27,304 nucleotides of DNA from a virus (taxonomy: Duplodnaviria; Caudoviricetes), in IMG/VR virus record IMGVR_UViG_3300023292_000044, positions 1 to 27,304 of that record, one strand, 5' to 3'. This document shows positions 2,971-21,168 of this stretch, in pieces. Numbering within the stretch: the first letter of the stretch is position 1; each line of letters starts with the position of its first letter. A model generated the notes under the pieces. That model was not told the origin of the DNA. It searched no databases and worked only from the letters and a program-made list of their open reading frames with translations. Both the position numbers and the translations under genes were made by a program.

Positions 2971-5073
2971 ATGGCTCAAAATATTTCACCAGGTGTCTAT
3001 ACAAAGATTATTGATTTAAGTCAATACCTTGCAGATATTCCAGGAACATTCGGATTTTGTCCGATTCTAACAAAACGCGGTCCTGACAACCAATTAACAT
3101 TCATTGGTAATGGACGGGATTACCGTAATTTGTTTGGATCTCCTGATATCGCAATCATGGGTAAGCATTATGGACAAGGACCATATATAGTAGAGAATCA
3201 TCTTTCTATTGCTACTTCTTGTTATGTAACTCGTGCTCTACCAGAAGATGCAACTTACTCGAACCTATTTTTGGGTATGCAGCTGGTTGATCCAAACGAA
3301 GGTTCTAGTTCTAATTCTCTGGGTGGCGGTCTATCTGCTGATCCAGTTAAGGCTGAACTTGCCACGTATTCTCATTCTGGAATCAATTCGGTTCCTGAAC
3401 TGGATACTTTCTTAGATCAAGCAGATATCACTACTTGGATAAATACAACAGATACTGGCGGTATTGGTCTTAGTGATGGTTGGTTAGCATACTTCCGTCC
3501 AATTGGGCGTGGTGACAGCTATGATGACTTCGCAATTATAATTGAGAAGCACGTCAACCCACAGAAAACTGGGGTCTATGTTCTAGAAATTTATGAAACA
3601 CAATTTGATGGTGATGATGTTCTTACAGAATCATATGAAGTTAGTTTCAATCCTCTAGATAAGGATTCGGCTGGTGAATCACTATATATCGAAGATGTGG
3701 TAAATAGATTCTCAGATCAGATTCGTGTTAAAATAAACCCGAAGGCTCTTGAAGTTCTTGAAGAACAACGAGTTGAATTCCATAAGAACGAAGAAGAAGA
3801 TACTTATCCAGATAACCCTTACTACATTGATGATCCAACGGATCCAAATTATGGAGTATTAGGTTATAAGGAATGGATCAAACAAGAAACACAAACAGTG
3901 TTTGATGCAGCACAGGCAGATCTTGAAACCGCTCTTGATGAATTAGTAGCTGCAAGAGAATTAACTCAGTTGACTGCTGCAGAGGTAGTAATTCGTAATA
4001 CTGCTATTGATCTTGCTTCGACTTCTGTTGCTTTAGCTAGAACAGCTTTAGCTACTGCGTCGACTGATTTGGAAGATGCATTCCAATTAGATATCTTGAC
4101 TACAAAAGATTATGATACCACAACTGCTACAATTGAACCGATTCATATGGATTATGGTTCAGATGGTTCTTTGTTTGCTATAGATCCAAGATCTGGTAAT
4201 CAGGTAATTCATCAGGCAACAGCGGATATGATTCTGGCTCAAGCATATGTTGGAATATTAACTGATCCATTAACACTTGACCCAATGGATAAGATTCTTG
4301 ACACTGAGGAAATTTGGATTGATTTAGTTTATGATCCAGGTTATCCTACTAATGTTAAATATTCTGCAGAGAATATTTCTAAGGATCTTAGAAGAGATTG
4401 TATAACCATTACTGACAATGGTGATAATAATAACTTCAAGCAAGCTAAAGATGAACATGATCAGTATCACCTAACCAACTCTAGATATGTTTCTAGGTAT
4501 GAAGGTTATTCTACGATCTTTGATGTGTGGACAGGTAAAGATATTGCGGTATCCCCTGTATACCATATGTCCAAGATTATTCCTATGGTTGATAAAGAAT
4601 ATGAACTATGGTACGCACCTGCTGGTTTCAATAGAGCCACAATTTCTGACATCAAGACACTCCGATGGAGTCCTAAACTTGGTGAAAGAGATCAGCTTTA
4701 TTTGATGCAGCTTAACCCAATTGTAAGATTCAATGTTGGATACACAGTTTGGGGTCAGCTAACCACTCAGGTAAGACCTTCGGCACTTCAGGATCTAAAC
4801 GTTATGCGTTTGGTTCTTTATATCAAGAGAGCTTTAGAACAATATCTTAAGTTCTTTATCTTTGAATTCAATGATGATCAGACTTGGGCACAAATCAAAA
4901 ATGGCATCATTCCATTCCTAGAAACAATTAGACGTAAGAGAGGTTTGAAATCATTTGAAGTTGACGTTGGTGCAACGGATTATGAATTTAAACAGAAAAT
5001 TGCTCATGTTAATATCATTCTCGAACCTATGAAGGTAATTGAGAGAATCGAACTTAACTTATTTGTAAAATAA
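2971..5073 (+). CDS. Contractile tail sheath protein (T4 gp18-like)
   Basis: N-terminal SPGVYTKIIDLS. C-terminal WYAPAGFNRA, RDQLY..QLNPI, VWGQLT, SALQDLNVMRL, FIFEFND..TW and ILEPMKVIERIELN sheath motifs. Confidence 0.95.
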   Translation: MAQNISPGVYTKIIDLSQYLADIPGTFGFCPILTKRGPDNQLTFIGNGRDYRNLFGSPDIAIMGKHYGQGPYIVENHLSIATSCYVTRALPEDATYSNLFLGMQLVDPNEGSSSNSLGGGLSADPVKAELATYSHSGINSVPELDTFLDQADITTWINTTDTGGIGLSDGWLAYFRPIGRGDSYDDFAIIIEKHVNPQKTGVYVLEIYETQFDGDDVLTESYEVSFNPLDKDSAGESLYIEDVVNRFSDQIRVKINPKALEVLEEQRVEFHKNEEEDTYPDNPYYIDDPTDPNYGVLGYKEWIKQETQTVFDAAQADLETALDELVAARELTQLTAAEVVIRNTAIDLASTSVALARTALATASTDLEDAFQLDILTTKDYDTTTATIEPIHMDYGSDGSLFAIDPRSGNQVIHQATADMILAQAYVGILTDPLTLDPMDKILDTEEIWIDLVYDPGYPTNVKYSAENISKDLRRDCITITDNGDNNNFKQAKDEHDQYHLTNSRYVSRYEGYSTIFDVWTGKDIAVSPVYHMSKIIPMVDKEYELWYAPAGFNRATISDIKTLRWSPKLGERDQLYLMQLNPIVRFNVGYTVWGQLTTQVRPSALQDLNVMRLVLYIKRALEQYLKFFIFEFNDDQTWAQIKNGIIPFLETIRRKRGLKSFEVDVGATDYEFKQKIAHVNIILEPMKVIERIELNLFVK

Positions 5074-5139: not shown

Positions 5140-5883
5140 ATGAATAACTCATTTAATGTAGTATCAGACAATAGATACGATCGAAACTTCGGTGGAACAA
5201 CTCAAGGTGTAGCTGATCCATATATCAGCGGATATCATTTTGTTGATTTCATCCGACTCCCGCCAAGAATAAGTGATTTCGTCCCCTCTAGTGGTGGTCG
5301 TCATTTTATTGGTTCATCACAAGAAGTTATGGATACTTTAAATTCTTCATGTTTATCCGTTACACCTCCAGGTGGAACATTAAACAAAGCAGAATTCACA
5401 GGTCTCGGCGGTGTTAAATTCGCAGTACCTACAAACGTTGATTATGGGAATACCCTGACTATGAAATTCTTGGAATTTAGTGGTCTTCCGATTCTTGGTA
5501 TTATCGGTGGTTGGGTACAAATGATCCGTGATTACAGAACAGGAGTATCAAACTTGGGTGATGGTGCTGATGAATACACTAAACAGAATTATGCCGCTTC
5601 AGTATTATATTGGACAACCAAACCAGATGGTAGAACTGTAGAGTTTTCAGCATTGTTCACAGGTGTATTCCCAACTAAAGATCCTAGAGATCTTTATACT
5701 GGTGATTTTACAGCAGTTGATAAACTTGAAGCCGATATCGAATTTAATGTTGATTGGACCTGGCATGAACCATGGGTACTTGATGCTGCACAAACAAGAG
5801 CTCATGCTATCCATGATGTAGGCGTCAAAGATTATCGTGTCAAAGGCGGAGATGGTGCTGGTGACGGAGAAGCCGGATTATAA
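5140..5883 (+). CDS. Tail tube protein
   Basis: Directly follows the sheath, with an AAGGAG SD. Tube-like pattern: SVTPPG.T...GLGG...VPT..DYGNTLTMKFLE.SG.P...W...IRD..TG...YAA......KPDG..VEFSALFTGVFP....EADIEFNVDW. Confidence 0.8.
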   Translation: MNNSFNVVSDNRYDRNFGGTTQGVADPYISGYHFVDFIRLPPRISDFVPSSGGRHFIGSSQEVMDTLNSSCLSVTPPGGTLNKAEFTGLGGVKFAVPTNVDYGNTLTMKFLEFSGLPILGIIGGWVQMIRDYRTGVSNLGDGADEYTKQNYAASVLYWTTKPDGRTVEFSALFTGVFPTKDPRDLYTGDFTAVDKLEADIEFNVDWTWHEPWVLDAAQTRAHAIHDVGVKDYRVKGGDGAGDGEAGL

Positions 5884-5900: not shown

Positions 5901-5933
5901 CCCACCCAGTATAGAAACTACTGGGTGGGTTTT
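5901..5933 (+). terminator. Rho-independent terminator after the tail tube gene
   Basis: CCCACCCAGTA-TAGAAAC-TACTGGGTGGG (11-bp perfect stem) followed by TTTT. Confidence 0.8.
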
Positions 5934-5999
5934 GAATAAATTAAAAGGAAGAACATCAAAAATACAACGTATCAACTAAAAACTTAAAGGAGTTTAGTT

Positions 6000-6821
6000 A
6001 TGGACAAACATGGAATAGAAGTTATCCCATCATTCAAAATAAAGTATCCAGAATATACTATTATTACACCACATACAAATAAAGAATATACAATTCGAAG
6101 TTTGAAGATTGGTGAAGAAGAATCTTTGAGGTCTAGTATTTTGACCCCAGCATCATTAACTGAACATCTTAATAACGCCATATTCGGATGCCTAGTTAAT
6201 AAACCGGATGATGTTGTAACAATTGAAGATTTCTTGAATAAGAGTACTATAGCTGATAGAGAAGCTTTAATGTATGGTCTTTACCATATTACTTATAAAG
6301 ATAAACATGCTTATGATATTACTTGTAAAGAATGTGAACATGTGAACCCTGTAAAAGTAAACTTCGGTGATTCATTCTCAATGGTGGCATGGAACAAAGA
6401 AACGAATATTCTTGATGAAGAAGTCCGTGTACAATTGGAACTAGCTGAATCAGTAACTGTTGTCTTGAAGCAAGCTAATCTGATGGAGGAACAAGAGTTA
6501 ATGAACATGTTGAAGTTCTCTAGTGATGATGAACGAGAAAAACAAATTGGTCTTTTACCCATATCTTGTTTTGAAATCGATGTAGGCGGTACCAGTGTTA
6601 ATGGTAACGATAAGGATGTAATTAAGGATCGTAATAATATTAAGCAAATTTATAACGACCTTCCGGCACAAGACAGAATGTCAATCGAAGATTCATATGA
6701 GAAAAACTTTGGGAAGTATGGTGTTACCATCAAAGTACTGATGAACTGTGCAAAATGTCACACCTCTAACGAAACGGAAATCGATTTAGTTCGACAGTTC
6801 TTTCGCGCAATCTACGGATGA
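6000..6821 (+). CDS. Baseplate hub assembly/tail assembly chaperone (T4 gp26-like) with CxxC zinc-ribbon pairs
   Basis: AAGGAG SD. Pattern P.YTIITP..K.YTIRSL.IGEE..L, DR..LMY.LY..TY, CKEC, CAKC and a C-terminal DLVRQFFR. Located after the tube gene. Confidence 0.75.
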   Translation: MDKHGIEVIPSFKIKYPEYTIITPHTNKEYTIRSLKIGEEESLRSSILTPASLTEHLNNAIFGCLVNKPDDVVTIEDFLNKSTIADREALMYGLYHITYKDKHAYDITCKECEHVNPVKVNFGDSFSMVAWNKETNILDEEVRVQLELAESVTVVLKQANLMEEQELMNMLKFSSDDEREKQIGLLPISCFEIDVGGTSVNGNDKDVIKDRNNIKQIYNDLPAQDRMSIEDSYEKNFGKYGVTIKVLMNCAKCHTSNETEIDLVRQFFRAIYG

Positions 6822-7008
6822 GAAACAGGTAGATAAATACGTAGAGAATTTAGAAGAAAGTATTTTTCTAGCTATAGAACTTGGTAAACAGGATTATTCA
6901 TCCATAATGGAAATGCCTGTAAAAAGGTTAGAAAAATACTTAGAGTGGAAAATTAAATTCGACGAAGATCTTGCAAAAGCCAAGGCGGAAAAATTAGAAC
7001 AAATCTAA
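6802..7008 (+). CDS. Start-less +1 frame extension of 6000..6821 (gp51/tail chaperone GT-like C-terminal module), missing from the ORF track
   Basis: The frame is open from 6790 to TAA 7006-7008: (F)AQSTDEKQVDKYVENLEESIFLAIELGKQDYSSIMEMPVKRLEKYLEWKIKFDEDLAKAKAEKLEQI. It fills the gap exactly, has no ATG/GTG/TTG until 6907, and carries the 'Y..I..MP..R...Y' chaperone-extension motif. Confidence 0.7.
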   Translation, partial: FAQSTDEKQVDKYVENLEESIFLAIELGKQDYSSIMEMPVKRLEKYLEWKIKFDEDLAKAKAEKLEQI

Positions 7009-7020: not shown

Positions 7021-7470
7021 ATGTCTATAGAAAATGATGAAAGATCTTTTAGAAGATTTGTAGCTGGTCAATTTGATCAAATATATGATTATATACCAGC
7101 TGTCGAGTCAACAGGAGATTTTATACGCATCGAGGGTATTGATGTAATCATTAATTCAATACGAACGTTGCTGTTAACCCCATTAGGGTTTTATCCATTT
7201 GATCCAGAGTATGGGTCTTTATTATACAAAAAAGTATTTGATCCCTTAGATGAACAATCAAAGAATGAAATAGTATATGAAGTAAAACAAAGAATTGAGA
7301 AATATGATGATCGGTGCAACATTACAAAAGTAGAGATATATGAGGTGGGCACTGATGGTAAAGCATTCCAGGTTGAAGTATACATTAAACGGGGAGAAAT
7401 CACAGGTCAAGTATCTATACATCTACCTAGTCCAAATCGCCAGTTCGCCTTTGAAACAGAGGATGCTTAA
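7021..7470 (+). CDS. Baseplate wedge subunit, T4 gp25/GPW-like
   Basis: IINSIRTLLLTPLGFYPFDPEYGSLLYKKVFDPLD...IEKYDDRC.I..VEI is the gp25 signature. ATG 7021 (AAGGG SD) is preferred over TTG 7015. Confidence 0.9.
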   Translation: MSIENDERSFRRFVAGQFDQIYDYIPAVESTGDFIRIEGIDVIINSIRTLLLTPLGFYPFDPEYGSLLYKKVFDPLDEQSKNEIVYEVKQRIEKYDDRCNITKVEIYEVGTDGKAFQVEVYIKRGEITGQVSIHLPSPNRQFAFETEDA

Positions 7471-13470: not shown

Positions 13471-16400
13471 TTAAATATTTACTCCATCTAAAAATGGTAA
13501 TGGTCTCCATAATTTTTGTTTCATTTCTCCACCACCTCCACCACCTCCGCTATTCTGTACAGAGCTTGAAGATAATATTGTCTGATTATTAATAGCGGTA
13601 ACAACATTCTCACTACCAGTATCTGATGATTTCTCCATTGTCTTTCCGAGTTTCTTAATCGGTTTAGAAGAAGCGATAGCTGATGCCGTCTCATTAAAAA
13701 TTTTATTTTCTCTTACTTTATCAGTCAAATATGATTTTCCTGAAGCCCAGTTCAATTCCTTTAATTTTTGTTCCTTATCTTTTAGATTAAAATCTGGTAT
13801 TGATATACCGGAAACCAAACCCCCAATTCGACTAGTTCCCTTTGCCCAATTAACTTCTTTTAATTTACTAGTTGCAGATTTTTTAGTTTTGGAAAGTAGA
13901 ATAGTTGCTTCTTCTACCGATAACCCGACTTTCATTGGAGCCAATACGTCCTTACCGTAACGCCCAGCTAAAGCTTTCCATTTTTCTGCTACTGCTTGGC
14001 TAACGGCACCAGCTATACCACTAACAGTTTCGGTAAGATTTCCAGCAGCACCTTTAATTCTCCCAGTAACAGTTTTACTCTCTCTTTCTTTTTCTCTATA
14101 TTCTTTAGACATCTTACTAAGAATGGAATATTTATCTTCTGATGTTTTAGCCTTAGCCTCTTTGATCCTTTTCTTATAGTCTGCACCAAATCCATCATAT
14201 CTCTCACTAGCAGCTTCGAGTAGACCTTTACTAGTCCCTGCTGTAACCTTCTCTCGTTGCCGCTCGTTTGATTTAGCTTTAAGGGCTTGTACACCAATAT
14301 TTACCGCTGTACCAATAGATTTTCCACTATTAAGAGCCCCATATAAACCCCGTTTTAATAGTCCTTTCTCTCCTAATTCATTAGCAGTCTTTTCTGCATA
14401 TTCTTTACTAGCTAATGATCTAGCAAGACCAACAGCTTGCATTGCAACATCAGCAATAATCAATGCTTTACCGGCACCTTTTATCGCAGCAGTTTTTCCC
14501 AACTTAGCAGCTCCAGGTACAAACCTAGCTATTGAACCAACTTTCTTTAATACTTTGCTCTTAGTGCCTATACCAGCCAATAATTTACTATTTCCTAAAG
14601 CAGGAATACCTCTCCGTGTACCCTTAACAATACCCTTACCTGTCTGCCATACCTTTTTCAGTGTACCTGTTCTACCAAATGCCCGTGTCGCTCTCCCAGC
14701 ATCGTCTACTTTTGTACCAGCGCTGGATAATATTTTTCCAACCTTGCTAATTTTGCCTTGTTTAATAGCTATTTGTCTAGCCACATTTCCTGCAACTTTA
14801 ATAGTTTTTCCAGTAGCTTGTGTTGCTGCACCAGCAGTCTTAATTCCTAAATTCGCTACCTTATTTGCCTTACTTGCTACATATCCACCAGCAAGGGCAG
14901 TACCACCAATAGCTGCAACTTGTGCCTTACCTCCGTGTTCACCTTTGATAGCATCCCATAATTTCTTACCAACCCACTTAGCCGCACCCCCTGCCATTTT
15001 TCTTCCAGTTTCCGTACCAAGTGCAAGTATAGCAGCTATTAAAGCTAACCCTTTTGGGCTCCTCAAGAAATCTAACATACCAACCATACCACGACCAGCA
15101 GCAGCTATCCCCTTACTACCACGAGATTTGGCTTTATCCCATCTAGCTTTTCCAGCATCTTTCTTAGCTTGCTTTGCTTTAGCAGCAGCAGATCTCTTAT
15201 TCTCTCTTATGGTATCTTTATCATCTTCATTCTCTTTCCATGAAAATAAACTTTTTCTTTGTTTTTGAGATTCATTTGATTCATCAATCCACGAACTCTG
15301 AACATCTATAATCTTACCTTGAGACGAATTAATCCCCCCAGTATTCTGTCTAATCTTTTCTTGGATTTTAATCTGAACATTAGCCGCACGTAGAAGATCT
15401 CTTAATATTGTTTGATTCTTAAATTCTAATTTTTCAGCAGCAGTACTTGGTAAACCTAATGCCTTAGCTCTAGCATTTTCACCAACCTTCTTTTGACGAG
15501 CACCTTCTCTTAGTTGAGATCTTTTAAATGCATTATTCTTATCAGTACCAGTCCAACTATGATCTTGGAGAGTTTTATATTGTCGTTTAATTTTTTCGAT
15601 TATGACGCCTTGGACGCCTTCTTTACTTTGCTTAACTCCACCAGCAAGACGAATTAATTCATTTTGTTGTTTCTGAGTTAATTCACCATATATCCTCTGC
15701 CATCTATAAATTGCAAATAAAGCAGCTGCTGTTTGAGCTTGTGGTGTTTTCTGTTTAGGAATATCAGTTAAATACTTACCTTTGAACAAGGTAGTCATAT
15801 TCATACCAGCCCAGAATTCAGAATCTTTACCTTTACTGGAGAGAATTCCCTTAGTTATGAAATTACCAACCGCAGTAATACTCTTCGTTGTTTTAGAAGT
15901 TATACCAACTAATTGTTTAGTTGTCCACTTCGAAAGATTATAAAATCCTTCTAATGCAGGATGAGATACTAATATTTTACTTACACCTTTATCGATACGA
16001 GTAGCCATTCCAAGCTTTAAAGTGCCTTTTTCAGTAAGCCGAATAAGTTGATTAAGACGCTCAATCATCTGTCCACCTTCTGTAGCGGCAAATGATTCAT
16101 CTGTTCTAGATATAAAAGCTCTGAATGCTTTACGAGGTAACGATGATTGTGCGAATGATTTACGAGTAGCAATATTATCTAATTGATTCTGTTTGATAAT
16201 TTTGTCATCTTTATTATCATTCTTGAATCCCTTTATCATATCTCGCAAAGAATTCGATTGAGCATTAATCGAGTGTTCTATAGATAATGCACCAAACCGT
16301 TCACTACCCTTACTAGTTTTAGTATCTACAGATTCAGTAGCTAAGGCAATCCTCTTCAATAATGAAGTCTGTACATCAACAACTTTTCCAGGTATAATCT

Positions 16401-17307
16401 TCTCATCTCTATGAATAACTGCAGCGCCAGATTTTTTAACAAGTCCACCAGTAGCTGCATGTGGTAAACCAATCGAAGAAATAGATTTTCCAGATAATGC
16501 TTCTGTTGCTTTTGCAATAATTGTAATATTACTTAGACGTAGACGGTCAATAGCACTAACCGTGTCAGCAGATGGTTGTTTTGGATTCCCTAATAAAAGT
16601 GAACCAGTTTCAAATGATTTAACTGCACCTGATCTTTTTTTATGGGTTCCTCCAACATCAGAACGCACTTTTCGGCGAGTAACATTAGTTGCAGTTTCTG
16701 TAATGCTGGTTGATTTATTATGAGTCTTACCAAAATCGGATCGTCTTTTATCATCGTCTTTAACTAAATCATCTTTAGCCTTTTCAAACGCATCACCAGA
16801 TGACCTTTTAAATTTATCAAACATTCCACTGAAGCCAGATTTTCCAGCTTGGAACATTTTACCAGCACTATCTTTAAGTGCATCTCTATTCGCATCTATT
16901 GTTCTATCAACTATACCACCAACAATCGGATTGATAGTACTAGCCAATCCTCCAATAAACGTCGATTTATCAATATCAATATCTTTTCGAATAGTTTCTA
17001 CTGTTGCTGCTGCTGGTTTAGCTACCATTTTAGCTGCACCAACTGCTGCTCGTCCAGTTCCTTTAGCTGCTGCAACAGACATAGCCGCAGTATTCTGTAC
17101 TAACGAATTAGATAGATGTCTAAGGGACGCCAACAAATTTCTAGTATCTGGTCCTGCTGGCCCACGTGGAGCAGGAATTATTTCTGGTGACGATGAATGT
17201 TGTGAATCAATATTACCAGATAGATCTTGGATAGAACGATTAATCTTTTCACCACTCGATTGTGACATCGGTGGTTCTATAGGTGGTTCTGGAGGTCTAT
17301 TTGGCAT
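13471..17307 (-). CDS. Tape measure protein (1278 aa)
   Basis: Long, Ala/Gly/Lys-rich and helical, with the LPHAATGGLV..SG.AVIH.DEKIIP motif typical of tape measures, a hydrophobic GLALIAAILALG segment, and a C-terminal low-complexity NVVTAINNQT..SSSS..GGGGGGG tail. Confidence 0.8.
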   Translation of the reverse strand: MPNRPPEPPIEPPMSQSSGEKINRSIQDLSGNIDSQHSSSPEIIPAPRGPAGPDTRNLLASLRHLSNSLVQNTAAMSVAAAKGTGRAAVGAAKMVAKPAAATVETIRKDIDIDKSTFIGGLASTINPIVGGIVDRTIDANRDALKDSAGKMFQAGKSGFSGMFDKFKRSSGDAFEKAKDDLVKDDDKRRSDFGKTHNKSTSITETATNVTRRKVRSDVGGTHKKRSGAVKSFETGSLLLGNPKQPSADTVSAIDRLRLSNITIIAKATEALSGKSISSIGLPHAATGGLVKKSGAAVIHRDEKIIPGKVVDVQTSLLKRIALATESVDTKTSKGSERFGALSIEHSINAQSNSLRDMIKGFKNDNKDDKIIKQNQLDNIATRKSFAQSSLPRKAFRAFISRTDESFAATEGGQMIERLNQLIRLTEKGTLKLGMATRIDKGVSKILVSHPALEGFYNLSKWTTKQLVGITSKTTKSITAVGNFITKGILSSKGKDSEFWAGMNMTTLFKGKYLTDIPKQKTPQAQTAAALFAIYRWQRIYGELTQKQQNELIRLAGGVKQSKEGVQGVIIEKIKRQYKTLQDHSWTGTDKNNAFKRSQLREGARQKKVGENARAKALGLPSTAAEKLEFKNQTILRDLLRAANVQIKIQEKIRQNTGGINSSQGKIIDVQSSWIDESNESQKQRKSLFSWKENEDDKDTIRENKRSAAAKAKQAKKDAGKARWDKAKSRGSKGIAAAGRGMVGMLDFLRSPKGLALIAAILALGTETGRKMAGGAAKWVGKKLWDAIKGEHGGKAQVAAIGGTALAGGYVASKANKVANLGIKTAGAATQATGKTIKVAGNVARQIAIKQGKISKVGKILSSAGTKVDDAGRATRAFGRTGTLKKVWQTGKGIVKGTRRGIPALGNSKLLAGIGTKSKVLKKVGSIARFVPGAAKLGKTAAIKGAGKALIIADVAMQAVGLARSLASKEYAEKTANELGEKGLLKRGLYGALNSGKSIGTAVNIGVQALKAKSNERQREKVTAGTSKGLLEAASERYDGFGADYKKRIKEAKAKTSEDKYSILSKMSKEYREKERESKTVTGRIKGAAGNLTETVSGIAGAVSQAVAEKWKALAGRYGKDVLAPMKVGLSVEEATILLSKTKKSATSKLKEVNWAKGTSRIGGLVSGISIPDFNLKDKEQKLKELNWASGKSYLTDKVRENKIFNETASAIASSKPIKKLGKTMEKSSDTGSENVVTAINNQTILSSSSVQNSGGGGGGGEMKQKLWRPLPFLDGVNI

Positions 17308-18272: not shown

Positions 18273-20057
18273 TTAGAAATTCCAGATATCAATATCTGGG
18301 TTGGTTGGTTTTTTAAATTCTTGCCTTCTCTTACCCGTTGTCACATTAAATCCTAGAAGTTCTGATATATCGATATTTGGATTACCATTTACTAATGATT
18401 TCAAATTCTTTTTAATATGATCATGTATTATTTTATTTGTTTTCTCTTTAGATCCAACCCTATCATCAGAGACTTCCATAGATAAACCAAACAAGGAAGG
18501 ATTGAATACCTCATCATCAAAATTCATTCCTACCGTATCCACAATTTGATCTACTAGGTTCTGACTAACAAACCCACCAGCCACACCAAGAGGGGGATCA
18601 TACATTTTAACATATGCACAGAAAGCTAAAGAAAGAGCTAAATCGTCATGCTCACCCTCATCTGCTTCTACCCTACCACTAGATTTCACTATCAATCCAA
18701 TCAACTCAAGCATCGTTCTCTTAGCTTTAATCAGGGATGGATCATCCTTTACATAAGTATATAGAGCATCTAGCATTAATGGTCTAGTCTGCGGTCCAGT
18801 ATATAATCCATATTTGTATTTAGTTGTTCTTTTGTTACTTTGTGAATTTTTAGTCTTTTGTTGATACAGTCTATATGATGATCCTGTTTGTGTCAAGAAC
18901 TCAACTACCTGATTACCGTATGAGTTATTCTCAACCACAATCATATTATTTTGATATATTTTGTTAACTAAATCAATAATCCTACAGAATTGGTCAACCC
19001 TCAAATGATCTTGGAACTCACCAACTTGTTCAAATGTTTCATAATCAATAACTTGGATAGTACTAAAGTCAGGTCCAGCCTCAGAAGCAGTATCAACACC
19101 AAGAAGGTAAAACTTGTTAGGTTCAGGCATAGCAAACTGTCTAAACTTATAACGCATGATTTCTATTTCTCTTAATGGATCTGCTTCAGATGCATTCAAT
19201 TTCAAAACAACATCACTATCAAAGAATGAATTTGATGAAGCAACAAATTTCATCTCTAATTCTTGCTCAATCTTCCATTGTACATTACCAAGTAGGTCAC
19301 ATTGAGTTTTATACCAAGTAGGATCATCTCTGAATTCAACTACATCAGTCCAATGGATCTTATGCGGTTTAAATATACTATCAGTCTCCCACGCAGCTTT
19401 CCATTGTTTATAATACCATTTACCAAGACCCACTGTTCTATTCGGAGTTGAAATAATTAAAGTAGCATAAGGAACCCCGTTCATCCTAGCAACTTTCTGA
19501 GATTTGAATAGAGCTGGAGCCATACCAGTATAAGCATCATCAATCTTTACAATATGGGCTGCTTCGTCGATGATAGCAATTGTGATGGCCTTACCTCTAA
19601 ATAGGCCCTGGGGCTTAGCAGCGTTGACCTGAGAGGCATAGAACTTACATCCGTTATCAAGGATAAAGGTCTGTTCGGTATCCTTGTCAAAGACGGGCCT
19701 AAGGAATTTAGGAAGGTTCTTGATCATGCTCATTATTTTTCTACAAAAATCTGTGGCTTCTGGGCCATCACGAGATACCATTCCTGCAACAACATTCTTA
19801 TAAAAAGTAAATACATAAGTAACGTATGCTTGAGCAAGAGTAGAAATACCAATCTGTCTAGATTTCAAAGCAACAAGATGATGGTCTTTAATTAATGATA
19901 ACAAGAAAACTTTTTGTGGGGCGTAAAGTTTCATTAACACGTTACCACCAGGCAATTCTAATTGTACATAATTTTCAATAAAATAGATTGGATCATTTTT
20001 GCATTTAAAATACTCTCTGAGCTGTTTCTTTACTTGATTATTTGTTTGTGATGCCAT
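18273..20057 (-). CDS. terL: Terminase large subunit (T4 gp17-like)
   Basis: EY.KCKNDPIYFIENYV, LY.PQ, Walker A KSRQIGIST, Walker B IAIIDEAAH, ISTPN coupling motif, and RNase H-like GVDTASE.G.DFS, VVENNSYG and HDDL. Confidence 0.95.
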   Translation of the reverse strand: MASQTNNQVKKQLREYFKCKNDPIYFIENYVQLELPGGNVLMKLYAPQKVFLLSLIKDHHLVALKSRQIGISTLAQAYVTYVFTFYKNVVAGMVSRDGPEATDFCRKIMSMIKNLPKFLRPVFDKDTEQTFILDNGCKFYASQVNAAKPQGLFRGKAITIAIIDEAAHIVKIDDAYTGMAPALFKSQKVARMNGVPYATLIISTPNRTVGLGKWYYKQWKAAWETDSIFKPHKIHWTDVVEFRDDPTWYKTQCDLLGNVQWKIEQELEMKFVASSNSFFDSDVVLKLNASEADPLREIEIMRYKFRQFAMPEPNKFYLLGVDTASEAGPDFSTIQVIDYETFEQVGEFQDHLRVDQFCRIIDLVNKIYQNNMIVVENNSYGNQVVEFLTQTGSSYRLYQQKTKNSQSNKRTTKYKYGLYTGPQTRPLMLDALYTYVKDDPSLIKAKRTMLELIGLIVKSSGRVEADEGEHDDLALSLAFCAYVKMYDPPLGVAGGFVSQNLVDQIVDTVGMNFDDEVFNPSLFGLSMEVSDDRVGSKEKTNKIIHDHIKKNLKSLVNGNPNIDISELLGFNVTTGKRRQEFKKPTNPDIDIWNF

Positions 20058-21168
20058 TAATTCTCCAACATATTTTTAAAATTTCAAGATTAGGATCTTG
20101 TAACCAATTAGATTCTTTAATACGAATAGTATCAATTGATTCTTTTAATTTTAAATTCTTCTCCCTAATAATATCATAATCTTTATGTTTAGAATATTCA
20201 TGTGAGTATTCATCAAATTCAATATCTAATTTTATATGTGGAAGGTATATATCCATACAATAACCACACATCCTTTTCTGATCCTCTATACGGTACGGTA
20301 TAACTTTGGATAAAGAAGTTAGAAATTTTGATTCTTTTCTCCCACACATATGTGAAAACCCATACATCTCTTCAATCATATCTAATTTCAAATTTCTAAA
20401 TACCAATCTGGCTTCTTCAGCCTGAGTCCAATGATCAACCCCATACTTCTCATTACACGTAGCTATAGATTTGTTCCTAACTTCTTCACTCTCCATGGGA
20501 AAATCTACACCGAAATGTTGCTGACATGATTCTATCTTTTTCTGTTTAACCTCATCAGATTGACTAGGATTGTCAACGTCATAATTTTTACGGCATGTAT
20601 CAATTCCATGTTTTCGTATATCTTTTGATTTATATGGGACTTCTACCCCATATCTAGATAATAATGATTGTCTTTGTCTAGCTTGAATTTCTGGACATTG
20701 CATAGCATAATCAACACCATACAATTCATTTATAGTATCTTTTCTTTTTTCTTTAAATTCTTCTGATTGACTAGCATTCTCAACACCATATTTTTTCAAC
20801 ATAGTTTTTTCAACTTTATCATAATGTGAAGGATGTTTTGAACCATATTTCTTTAAATTGGTATCTTCTATTTGTAGTTTCATTGAATCAGAAGAAAAAC
20901 AATTAGTTACTCCATAATGATCAAGAAATGTTCCTTCTTTCTTCTTTTGAATATCTTTATTTTTTGATACACATGCAGAACAACAAAAATCTTTATAACC
21001 ATCAAACACATTAATAAACCCAGTTGGTCCGTGACATGTTTTACATTCACCGCGTGTACCACCAAAATCTAAATAATATTTTTCAGCCGGTTTATGTTTA
21101 CAAGAAATATGAATAGATAATGATTTTTTAGATTTAAATTCTTTATGACATATCTTACAAATTTCCAT
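20038..21168 (-). CDS. Free-standing putative homing endonuclease: C2H2 finger, YGV repeats and a Vsr/PD-(D/E)xK-like nuclease domain
   Basis: CKIC...SIHISCKH and CKTC...FCCSAC, 8-9 repeats of about 23 aa with a (K/R)YGV core, and a C-terminal MDIYLPHIKLDIEFDEYSH...D..RE......IRIKE. Confidence 0.75.
   Translation of the reverse strand: MEICKICHKEFKSKKSLSIHISCKHKPAEKYYLDFGGTRGECKTCHGPTGFINVFDGYKDFCCSACVSKNKDIQKKKEGTFLDHYGVTNCFSSDSMKLQIEDTNLKKYGSKHPSHYDKVEKTMLKKYGVENASQSEEFKEKRKDTINELYGVDYAMQCPEIQARQRQSLLSRYGVEVPYKSKDIRKHGIDTCRKNYDVDNPSQSDEVKQKKIESCQQHFGVDFPMESEEVRNKSIATCNEKYGVDHWTQAEEARLVFRNLKLDMIEEMYGFSHMCGRKESKFLTSLSKVIPYRIEDQKRMCGYCMDIYLPHIKLDIEFDEYSHEYSKHKDYDIIREKNLKLKESIDTIRIKESNWLQDPNLEILKICWRINGITNK

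Follow-up and report, generated by a model that had tools for sequence, protein, structure and literature searches.

Locus and predicted shift site

The DNA analysed here is a 27,304-nucleotide (nt) stretch of a tailed-phage genome (Caudoviricetes; IMG/VR record IMGVR_UViG_3300023292_000044, positions 1 to 27,304), referred to below as the window. It carries a contractile-tail module with a sheath gene, a tube gene, an open reading frame (ORF) for a protein of 273 amino acids (aa), a gap of 200 bases and a gp25-like gene. The 273-aa ORF, which we assign to the gp26 family of tail assembly chaperones (TAC), is predicted to end in a programmed +1 frameshift site leading into a second frame within the gap. 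The elements concerned are as follows.

6000..6821, + strand: predicted short form (TAC-N / G-like) of a gp26-family tail assembly chaperone; 273 aa, two CxxC motifs
6787..6789, + strand: TAG shutting the +1 frame, four codons ahead of the predicted shift site
6798..6806, + strand: predicted shift cassette TTC TTT CGC, with the invariant core TTTCG at 6801-6805
6802..7008, + strand: start-less +1 frame of 68 codons, the predicted C-terminal extension (TAC-C / T-like)

The 3' end of the ORF reads CAG TTC TTT CGC GCA ATC TAC GGA TGA (6795-6821). The codon TTT occupies 6801-6803 and the overlapping +1 codon TTC occupies 6802-6804. The +1 frame is shut by the TAG at 6787-6789, open from 6790 to 7005 and terminated by TAA at 7006-7008, giving 72 codons from stop to stop. 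Its first ATG, GTG or TTG is the ATG at 6907, 35 codons beyond the site. A first-pass annotation made from the letters alone had described this gene end and a start-less +1 run from the TAG at 6787 to 7008; all of its coordinates hold on rereading, and no start precedes 6907. It had also proposed that re-pairing from TTT (6801) to TTC (6802) yields a product of about 335 aa. The length computed after such a shift is exactly 335 aa (268 + 67), the shift itself being a prediction. Contigs from four other sequencing runs cover the site with zero base or indel differences, and an assembly error is therefore excluded.

Among the 16 Phe-Arg pairs encoded by the 18 long ORFs of the window, the site is the only in-frame TTT_CG. 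The +1 frame contains one more in-frame TTT C (TTT CTA) at 6864-6868, at residue 289 of the long form, where the next base is T and not G.

Conservation of the site

Related loci were collected in two sets. The first comprised 165 loci with a match, from which 48 duplicates and 14 truncated loci were removed to leave 103; the second comprised 83 examined loci, less 34 duplicates and 2 truncated loci, to leave 47. The final collection was thus 150 non-redundant loci, with 82 duplicates and 16 truncated loci dropped. The large DNA scans contributed the best 80 of 270, the best 80 of 315 and the best 80 of 294 matches. One of the three patterns used in two early scans contained residues of the site, whereas the patterns of a later viral scan contained none, and 45/45 new viral loci from that later scan show the site. 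The collection is diverse: its members share 30-100% amino-acid identity and fall into 70 clusters at the 70% level and 11 at the 50% level. One member (L001) is a 100% identical copy of the window gene.

An in-frame TTT_CGN followed by a +1 frame of 64-83 codons was present in 150/150 loci (103/103 and 47/47). A -1 frame as long as 45 codons was seen in only 1/150. In 130/150 loci, the +1 frame is shut no more than nine codons upstream of the site. In the same genes, TTT accounts for 1218/1583 Phe codons and CGN for 316/1478 Arg codons (21%, with AGR at 79%). The conservation of TTT_CG is far beyond chance.

A 149-protein tree was used to count codon changes. The site Phe underwent 0 synonymous changes, compared with 13-33 in 33 other conserved two-fold columns, and the Phe preceding it underwent 8. 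The site Arg underwent 0 CGN/AGR switches, compared with 22-28 in three other conserved Arg columns, while the third base of its codon changed 51 times. Across the 150 loci, the site Arg is encoded by CGT (57), CGC (53), CGA (23) or CGG (17), and never by AGR. The codon before the site TTT is TTT in 136 loci, TTC in 10, TTG in 2, TTA in 1 and CTT in 1, and UCC never occurs there. Because the Phe and Arg codons are frozen while the third Arg base is free, the constraint acts on five nucleotides rather than on two residues. At the protein level, 86/89 homologs end in Phe-Arg plus a few residues.

The first-pass annotation had asked whether TTT_CG and a downstream +1 ORF are conserved among homologs, and both were found in 150/150 loci. 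A freely variable Phe codon, or a downstream ORF of variable phase with its own Shine-Dalgarno (SD) sequence and start, had been named there as contrary evidence. Instead, the codon is never TTC and CG always follows it (150/150), and the phase is +1 in 150/150 loci with no shared start or SD sequence.

Coding capacity of the +1 extension

Immediately after the site, codon choice is restricted. The Ser two codons past the site Phe is TCA in 41/41 cases (background, 31%), and Ala is GCA in 28/30 (background, 44%). These choices yield Gln or His in the +1 frame and indicate that a dual-coding constraint is present directly 3' of the site. In the stretch from the zero-frame stop to the first common Met, third positions of the +1 frame carry 2116 substitutions, versus 1204 and 839 at the other two positions (330 non-independent pairs).

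The extension has strongly conserved residues: P39 and K50 in 150/150 loci, W49 in 149/150, M38 in 147/150 and E26 in 145/150. Conserved columns also lie ahead of Met24, namely Tyr13, Glu19, Ile21 and Phe22. No ATG, GTG or TTG precedes extension codon 20 in 63/150 loci, and no ATG does so in 100/150. An SD-like site lies ahead of the first extension ATG in 3% of loci; strong SD sequences precede the sheath, tube and chaperone genes. Judged by these substitution and conservation patterns, the start-less +1 frame is protein-coding from the site onward.

A profile of the extension gave 193 matches among 1.84 billion proteins. The best 150 were short calls with scattered starts, with a single exception, a repeat match in a 4082-aa protein. 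No fused chaperone-extension protein was found in the best 150 of the 193 matches or among 89 full-length homologs. The predicted structure of the extension consists of a helix, a short helix, Met-Pro and a long helix, with a predicted local distance difference test (pLDDT) score of 93.

Identity of the chaperone

The 273-aa protein matched PF12322 (the T4 gp26 family) at 48.5 bits, above the cut-off of 24.5, and phrog_150 with an E value of 2e-12. It aligned with T4 gp26 as far as the final Phe-Phe (P 0.0003), and the C-terminal CxxC is present. In BFVD, 69 matches had E values up to 0.001, many of them named baseplate hub proteins. The structure was predicted with a pLDDT of 87.6. When this model was ranked against 48,161 chains with VIA-align, the first match was 3KLU (Z 5.8, root-mean-square deviation [rmsd] 6.2, 98 residues aligned), the second was the HK97 tail assembly chaperone 2OB9 (Z 5.5, rmsd 4.5, 92 aligned) and the third was 3FGX (Z 4.5). 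We take 3KLU and 3FGX to be tail assembly chaperones as well. The three matches cover residues 4-110, and their Z scores are middling. A Foldseek search of the model against the PDB returned no match. The earlier call of a tail assembly chaperone is supported by the PF12322 score and by the ranking of the predicted fold.

Neighboring genes

The features surrounding the chaperone gene are as follows.

2971..5073, + strand: tail sheath gene (phrog_19666, E 3e-61; phrog_23, E 5e-38)
5140..5883, + strand: tail tube gene, adjoining the chaperone gene on its 5' side (phrog_45, E 1.6e-7; PF23806 weak, E 0.008)
5901..5929, + strand: terminator-like hairpin in the spacer between the tube and chaperone genes (11-bp stem with 7 G-C pairs, T-rich tail)
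5987..5992, + strand: SD-like AAGGAG of the chaperone gene (duplex with the anti-SD sequence, -8.2 kcal/mol)
7021..7470, + strand: gp25-like baseplate wedge gene, directly 3' (PF04965, E 2.7e-9)

This order is shared by the relatives. In 62 loci, a tube homolog lies 0.8-2.1 kb ahead of the chaperone stop codon, and a gp25-like gene comes next after the extension in 139/141 loci with enough flank. The hairpin at 5901-5929 is T-rich on both strands, and 0.3 such sites are expected from shuffled sequences; it could lower expression of the chaperone.

Further along the window, a minus-strand gene at 13471-17307 encodes a 1278-aa Ala/Gly/Lys-rich protein, a possible tape measure, and converges on the baseplate genes; it had no family match in profile library searches. 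A DUF7487 homing-endonuclease-like gene (20038-21168, minus strand) shares 20 bases with the 5' end of the terminase gene, and the terminase matches PF03237. No RNA polymerase gene is present in the 27,304 nt of the window.

Proposed mechanism and alternative explanations

In our interpretation, the gp26-family chaperone gene makes a minor 335-aa G/GT-like product by programmed +1 frameshifting at UUU_CG, and we estimate the probability of this at roughly 85%. Most ribosomes would stop at 6819 and release the 273-aa short form. In a small share, tRNA-Phe in the P site would re-pair from UUU (6801) to UUC (6802) while CGC waits in the A site, and the shifted ribosomes would read on to 7008 to produce the long form. 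Such re-pairing is possible in 150/150 loci. By analogy with PA-X (0.7-1.3%) and Mu (2.2%), the efficiency would be about 1 to a few percent. If the system works as in lambda, the tape measure protein would be covered by numerous copies of the short form, and the extension of the rare long form would bring in the tail tube protein, with the product of 5140-5883 as the likely partner. We infer the ribosomal shift, its +1 size and its low efficiency from sequence. The first-pass annotation had arrived at the same G/GT-like system with a +1 UUU_CG signal, and the constant phase, the freezing of the site, the start-less frame and the predicted fold all agree with it.

A shift of -2, as used by phage Mu, would enter the identical frame and give the same long product plus one junction residue, and with TTT TTT in 136/150 loci tRNA-Phe could re-pair two bases back. 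However, in the 13 loci where TTC (10), TTG (2) or TTA (1) precedes the site, including the window, tRNA-Phe would meet UCU, UGU or UAU as the -2 codon and could not pair with it. All 150 loci offer UUC as the +1 codon, and the invariant C after TTT is required for a +1 shift but not for a -2 shift, so that a shift of -2 is improbable. It is more improbable still that the extension is a separate small gene with its own or coupled initiation and that TTT CGN is kept for another reason. The Met at extension codon 24 is the first ATG in 75/150 loci, short database proteins are called from it, and a weak promoter-like match lies at 6881-6908. Nevertheless, the window has no start until extension codon 35, most loci (100/150) have no ATG before codon 20, and an SD-like site is found in just 3%. 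Extension residues 1-23, upstream of that Met, are conserved and show coding-type substitutions. An ATG overlapping the stop, as A-TGA or TGA-TG, would lie in the -1 frame, which is closed, and the promoter matches in the region number 2, against 5.3 in shuffled sequences. A separate gene also leaves the synonymous freezing of two codons without explanation.

Slippage could also occur during transcription. The relatives encode two beta/beta-prime RNA polymerase sets, and the site contains a run of T6 in 128/150 loci and T7 in 8. A phage multisubunit polymerase that dropped one U on this run would provide an edited mRNA for the long form. Yet 13/150 loci, the window among them, have a run of only T3, and one has T5. 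There is also avoidance of a seventh T: where the upstream codon is AAY, AGY or CAY, C is found 95 times and T 12 times, although the background is T-rich (Asn codons, AAT 1311 and AAC 377). Polymerase slippage needs longer runs. The T3 runs and the seventh-T avoidance argue against slippage of this kind, and the conservation follows codon phase and includes CG; such editing is barely credible. The avoidance of a seventh T suggests, in addition, selection against a -1 heptamer. No more credible is a real shift whose long product serves assembly of the baseplate hub and does not act as a chaperone bridge. In T4, annotation places gp26 and gp51 among the baseplate hub proteins, gp25 is directly next in 139/141 loci, and the homology between the extension and TAC-C domains is weak. 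Against this, the fold search ranks known tail assembly chaperones first, the gene lies just 3' of the tube gene, and the architecture is that of G/GT. The two roles also overlap, because the T4-like gp29 is annotated as "hub subunit and tail length."

Several results weigh against the +1 G/GT-like interpretation. In comparison with G/GT, the locus lacks adjacency to a tape measure gene and a firm TAC-C match. No identified tape measure gene adjoins the chaperone gene, and gp25 stands in that place. A chaperone gene directly before the tape measure gene is usual but not universal, and T4 departs from this order too. The likeness of the extension to T4 gp51 and other TAC-C domains is suggestive only. 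In a profile-profile comparison, the extension aligned with the cyanophage gp51-like domain collinearly from the junction, but weakly (P 0.0013, probability 18%); the score was 21.0, versus a maximum of 16.0 in 59 column shuffles. A comparison with five isolates gave a probability of 5%. No match was found with single T4 gp51, nor in Pfam, PHROG or NCBIfam. The top Foldseek match was a "tape measure chaperone" at E 0.51, and the nearest named Atlas clusters, P2 GpE (PF06528, 0.90) and Gp51_C (PF28602, 0.89), are a lead only. The comparison with T4 gp51 and the chaperone families that had been proposed from the letters thus gave a suggestive profile match and no library match. A tblastn search of the extension against isolates produced only E 7-8 matches inside a long unrelated Erwinia-phage ORF, which were rejected.

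Nor did the searches for accessory signals succeed. No conserved stimulatory RNA structure was found on the 3' side (mean z -0.4 to -0.6, versus -0.2 for controls, in 75/150 loci), and no internal SD sequence lies within 21 nt of the site, the peak at 24-39 nt upstream tracking Glu and Gly codons. In a complete relative, TTT_CG is not avoided elsewhere (33 seen, 24.6 expected). The motif alone is therefore no strong signal, and the case rests on its conservation; the lack of depletion also fits a weak, low-efficiency signal. Finally, 3/89 homologs (P0223, P0236 and P0237) end in Phe-Thr, Leu-Ser or Phe-Ser. Exceptions to the site may therefore exist, possibly as variant shift sites. DNA for P0236 and P0237 was looked for, with none located, and P0223 was not sought.

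Relatives that probably read on in the -1 frame

Other members of the gp26 family continue in the -1 frame; for all relatives, the direction was read from open frames. A -1 continuation was found in P-SSM2, S-PM2, HTVC008M, ViI and GAP32, and it enters phrog_634 in the first four (weakly in ViI). Cyanophage-like loci were then compared (L191-L275; 80 fetched, minus 4 short loci and 8 duplicates, leaving 68). T_TTT_TTC stands at the aligned Phe-Phe in 67/68 of them, with G next in 64, and is followed by a -1 frame of 59-66 codons that matches the gp51 C-domain. The sequence TTTTTTCG is present in 136/150 loci of the jumbo-phage clade to which the window belongs, and the cyanophages carry the identical TTTTTTCG one base out of phase.

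The closest cultured homologs are AR9-like jumbo phages (AR9, BpSp, PALS_2, Machias, SA1, LY01 and phiR1-37), at 19-25% identity. At or close to the aligned position they carry a Phe codon (CTT TTY), and the frame behind it is likewise short and helical. Unlike in the jumbo +1 clade, this downstream frame is -1 in 7/7, and the +1 frame is closed; LPJP1 was left out of this count because its junction spans the end of the record. The candidate -1 frame stays open for 227-272 nt past the stop in 7/7 (L006:3814-4073 for AR9; L357-L362). The records treat it as a hypothetical gene of its own, whose assigned start is inconsistent (CTG in AR9).

In trees, the +1 set clusters with the AR9-like set (support 96/89 and 100/99), and the +1 set formed one group (80/87) in one tree. 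After removal of four long rows, the AR9-like rows fell inside the +1 set on a very long branch, and the order is unstable.

With odds slightly better than even, we suggest that an ancestral U-rich site in the gp26 family switched its shift direction by a one-base change of phase. Cyanophages would read TTTTTTCG as T_TTT_TTC_G and slip -1, while the jumbo clade would read it as TTT_TTT_CG and slip +1. The jumbo clade would also select against the seventh U that rebuilds the -1 heptamer (C 95 versus T 12). If true, PA-X-type UUU_CGN would be a productive, structure-free recoding signal on bacterial ribosomes and would occur in all three domains. The gp26 family would then be a natural series (-1, +1 and T4 gene duplication) for studying what sets the direction of frameshifting.

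Phage group, host, and significance

A complete relative of 277 kb (G001) carries genes for two beta and two beta-prime RNA polymerase subunits and a PF07068 capsid protein, together with a T4-like portal and a GH108 peptidoglycan hydrolase. Two beta genes were found in 5/5 further large relatives. In G001-G006 (for G001, L175, L176 and L177), the two beta/beta-prime pairs are complete and the subunits are unsplit, at ~900-1,380 aa. The RNA polymerases of phiKZ and AR9 are split.

Multimeric-RNAP-encoding Caudovirales (mReC) have been described with beta/beta-prime genes, a PF07068 capsid and a PF03237 terminase (PMC7481178). Judged by gene content, the phages studied here fit into this group, and their host is probably bacterial, given the mReC-like genes of the relatives. 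One locus lies in a bin labeled Thermoplasmatales and one in a bin labeled Hyphomicrobiales, and bins are poor evidence of host. DNA of the window is present in salt-lake metagenomes, and no RNA data set was listed among the sequencing runs that contain it. No cultured member of the +1 clade was found among 50,697 phage records.

G001 also encodes a family B DNA polymerase that carries a fused uracil-DNA-glycosylase-like domain (L181:437-3697) and a volactin-like actin homolog (L179:12701-13801; PF25216, E 2e-70). FolE2 and QueC (L174:13511-14359 and L180:11171-11767) hint at 7-deazaguanine DNA modification, and glycosyl-, methyl- and sulfotransferases are numerous. An open -1 frame after its capsid gene runs through a terminator and is not protein-like; it was rejected as a candidate.

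The present reading would fill an "intergenic gap" with a product that is probably essential and that gene callers overlook or give a wrong start, across a widespread, uncultured clade of jumbo phages that encode RNA polymerase. Internal +1 sites are hard to detect, and few are known in bacteria. Frozen over 150 divergent genomes, the site amounts to a minimal cassette. In addition, the -1 relatives at the aligned position, including the cultured AR9 of Bacillus subtilis, bear on how a direction is chosen.

Comparison with known systems

G/GT shifts of -1, -2 and +1 have been described, and HSTV-2 is a likely +1 case (PMC5009743, PMC8211752). In lambda, gpG binds the tape measure protein and the T domain binds the tube protein (PMC5009743). 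The locus resembles gpG/gpGT in that the chaperone gene follows the tube gene, the shift lies near its 3' end, the protein has an N-terminal chaperone fold and a short major and a long minor product are predicted. It differs from lambda in that the predicted shift goes forward (+1, at UUU_CG) and not back (-1, on a heptamer), the protein is a 273-aa gp26-family member with two CxxC motifs, and gp25 comes next instead of the tape measure gene.

As in T4, the protein belongs to the PF12322/phrog_150 family, the junction falls at the same C-terminal Phe-Phe as in gp26, and the long form would combine a gp26-like part with a small helical C-domain. T4 gp51 aligns with phrog_150 over its length and, at the C terminus, with phrog_634; because the gp26-like part and the phrog_634 domain are fused in it, gp51 is a natural long form. 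Unlike this locus, T4 uses two genes, 26 and 51, for the two products, and Kyanoviridae, ViI and GAP32 read on in the -1 frame. According to Vladimirov, Gautam and Davidson (2022, Virology 566:9), gp26 and gp51 are reportedly short and long chaperones, and frameshifting is said to occur in several T4-like groups. In a literature search, with most subscription journals outside its coverage, no paper was found that describes +1 shifting for gp26-family genes.

The closest precedent for the motif comes from haloviruses. A +1 shift at TTT-CGC has been proposed for the chaperones of the HF1 group (HF1, HF2, Serpecor1 and Hardycor2) (PMC7230728), and TTT-CGC was found in frame in the chaperone gene of the HF2 record. 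Common to the HF1 group, HSTV-2 and the present locus is a proposed +1 shift near the stop of the first chaperone gene, at TTT-CGC in the HF1 group. That group consists of archaeal myoviruses of ~78 kb, in which a 156-aa chaperone adjoins the tape measure. The present phages are jumbo phages of ~280 kb that have a gp26-family chaperone and probably a bacterial host, and here the motif is conserved over 150 divergent loci. Haloviruses and the jumbo clade probably use the motif independently of each other.

UUU_Ynn is prone to +1 shifting in bacteria (PMC5009743), and the +1 shift at UCC_UUU_CGU in influenza A PA-X was shown by mass spectrometry (PMC3498833). As in PA-X, UUU_C would occupy the P site and CGN the A site, with no requirement for a 3' structure. 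In contrast to PA-X, the E-site codon is UUU (136/150) or, in the window, UUC, but never UCC; the host is prokaryotic; and the direction is predicted from sequence. The first-pass annotation had linked UUU_CGN to PA-X and amalgaviruses, but eukaryotic RNA viruses are not its only home, given the proposed halovirus shift and the +1-prone UUU_Y of bacteria. In general, both the G/GT logic and the motif are precedented, and this is no new class of system. What is new, and strongly supported by the main sequence comparisons, is a putative +1 variant in a gp26-family chaperone that would work in a G/GT-like manner.

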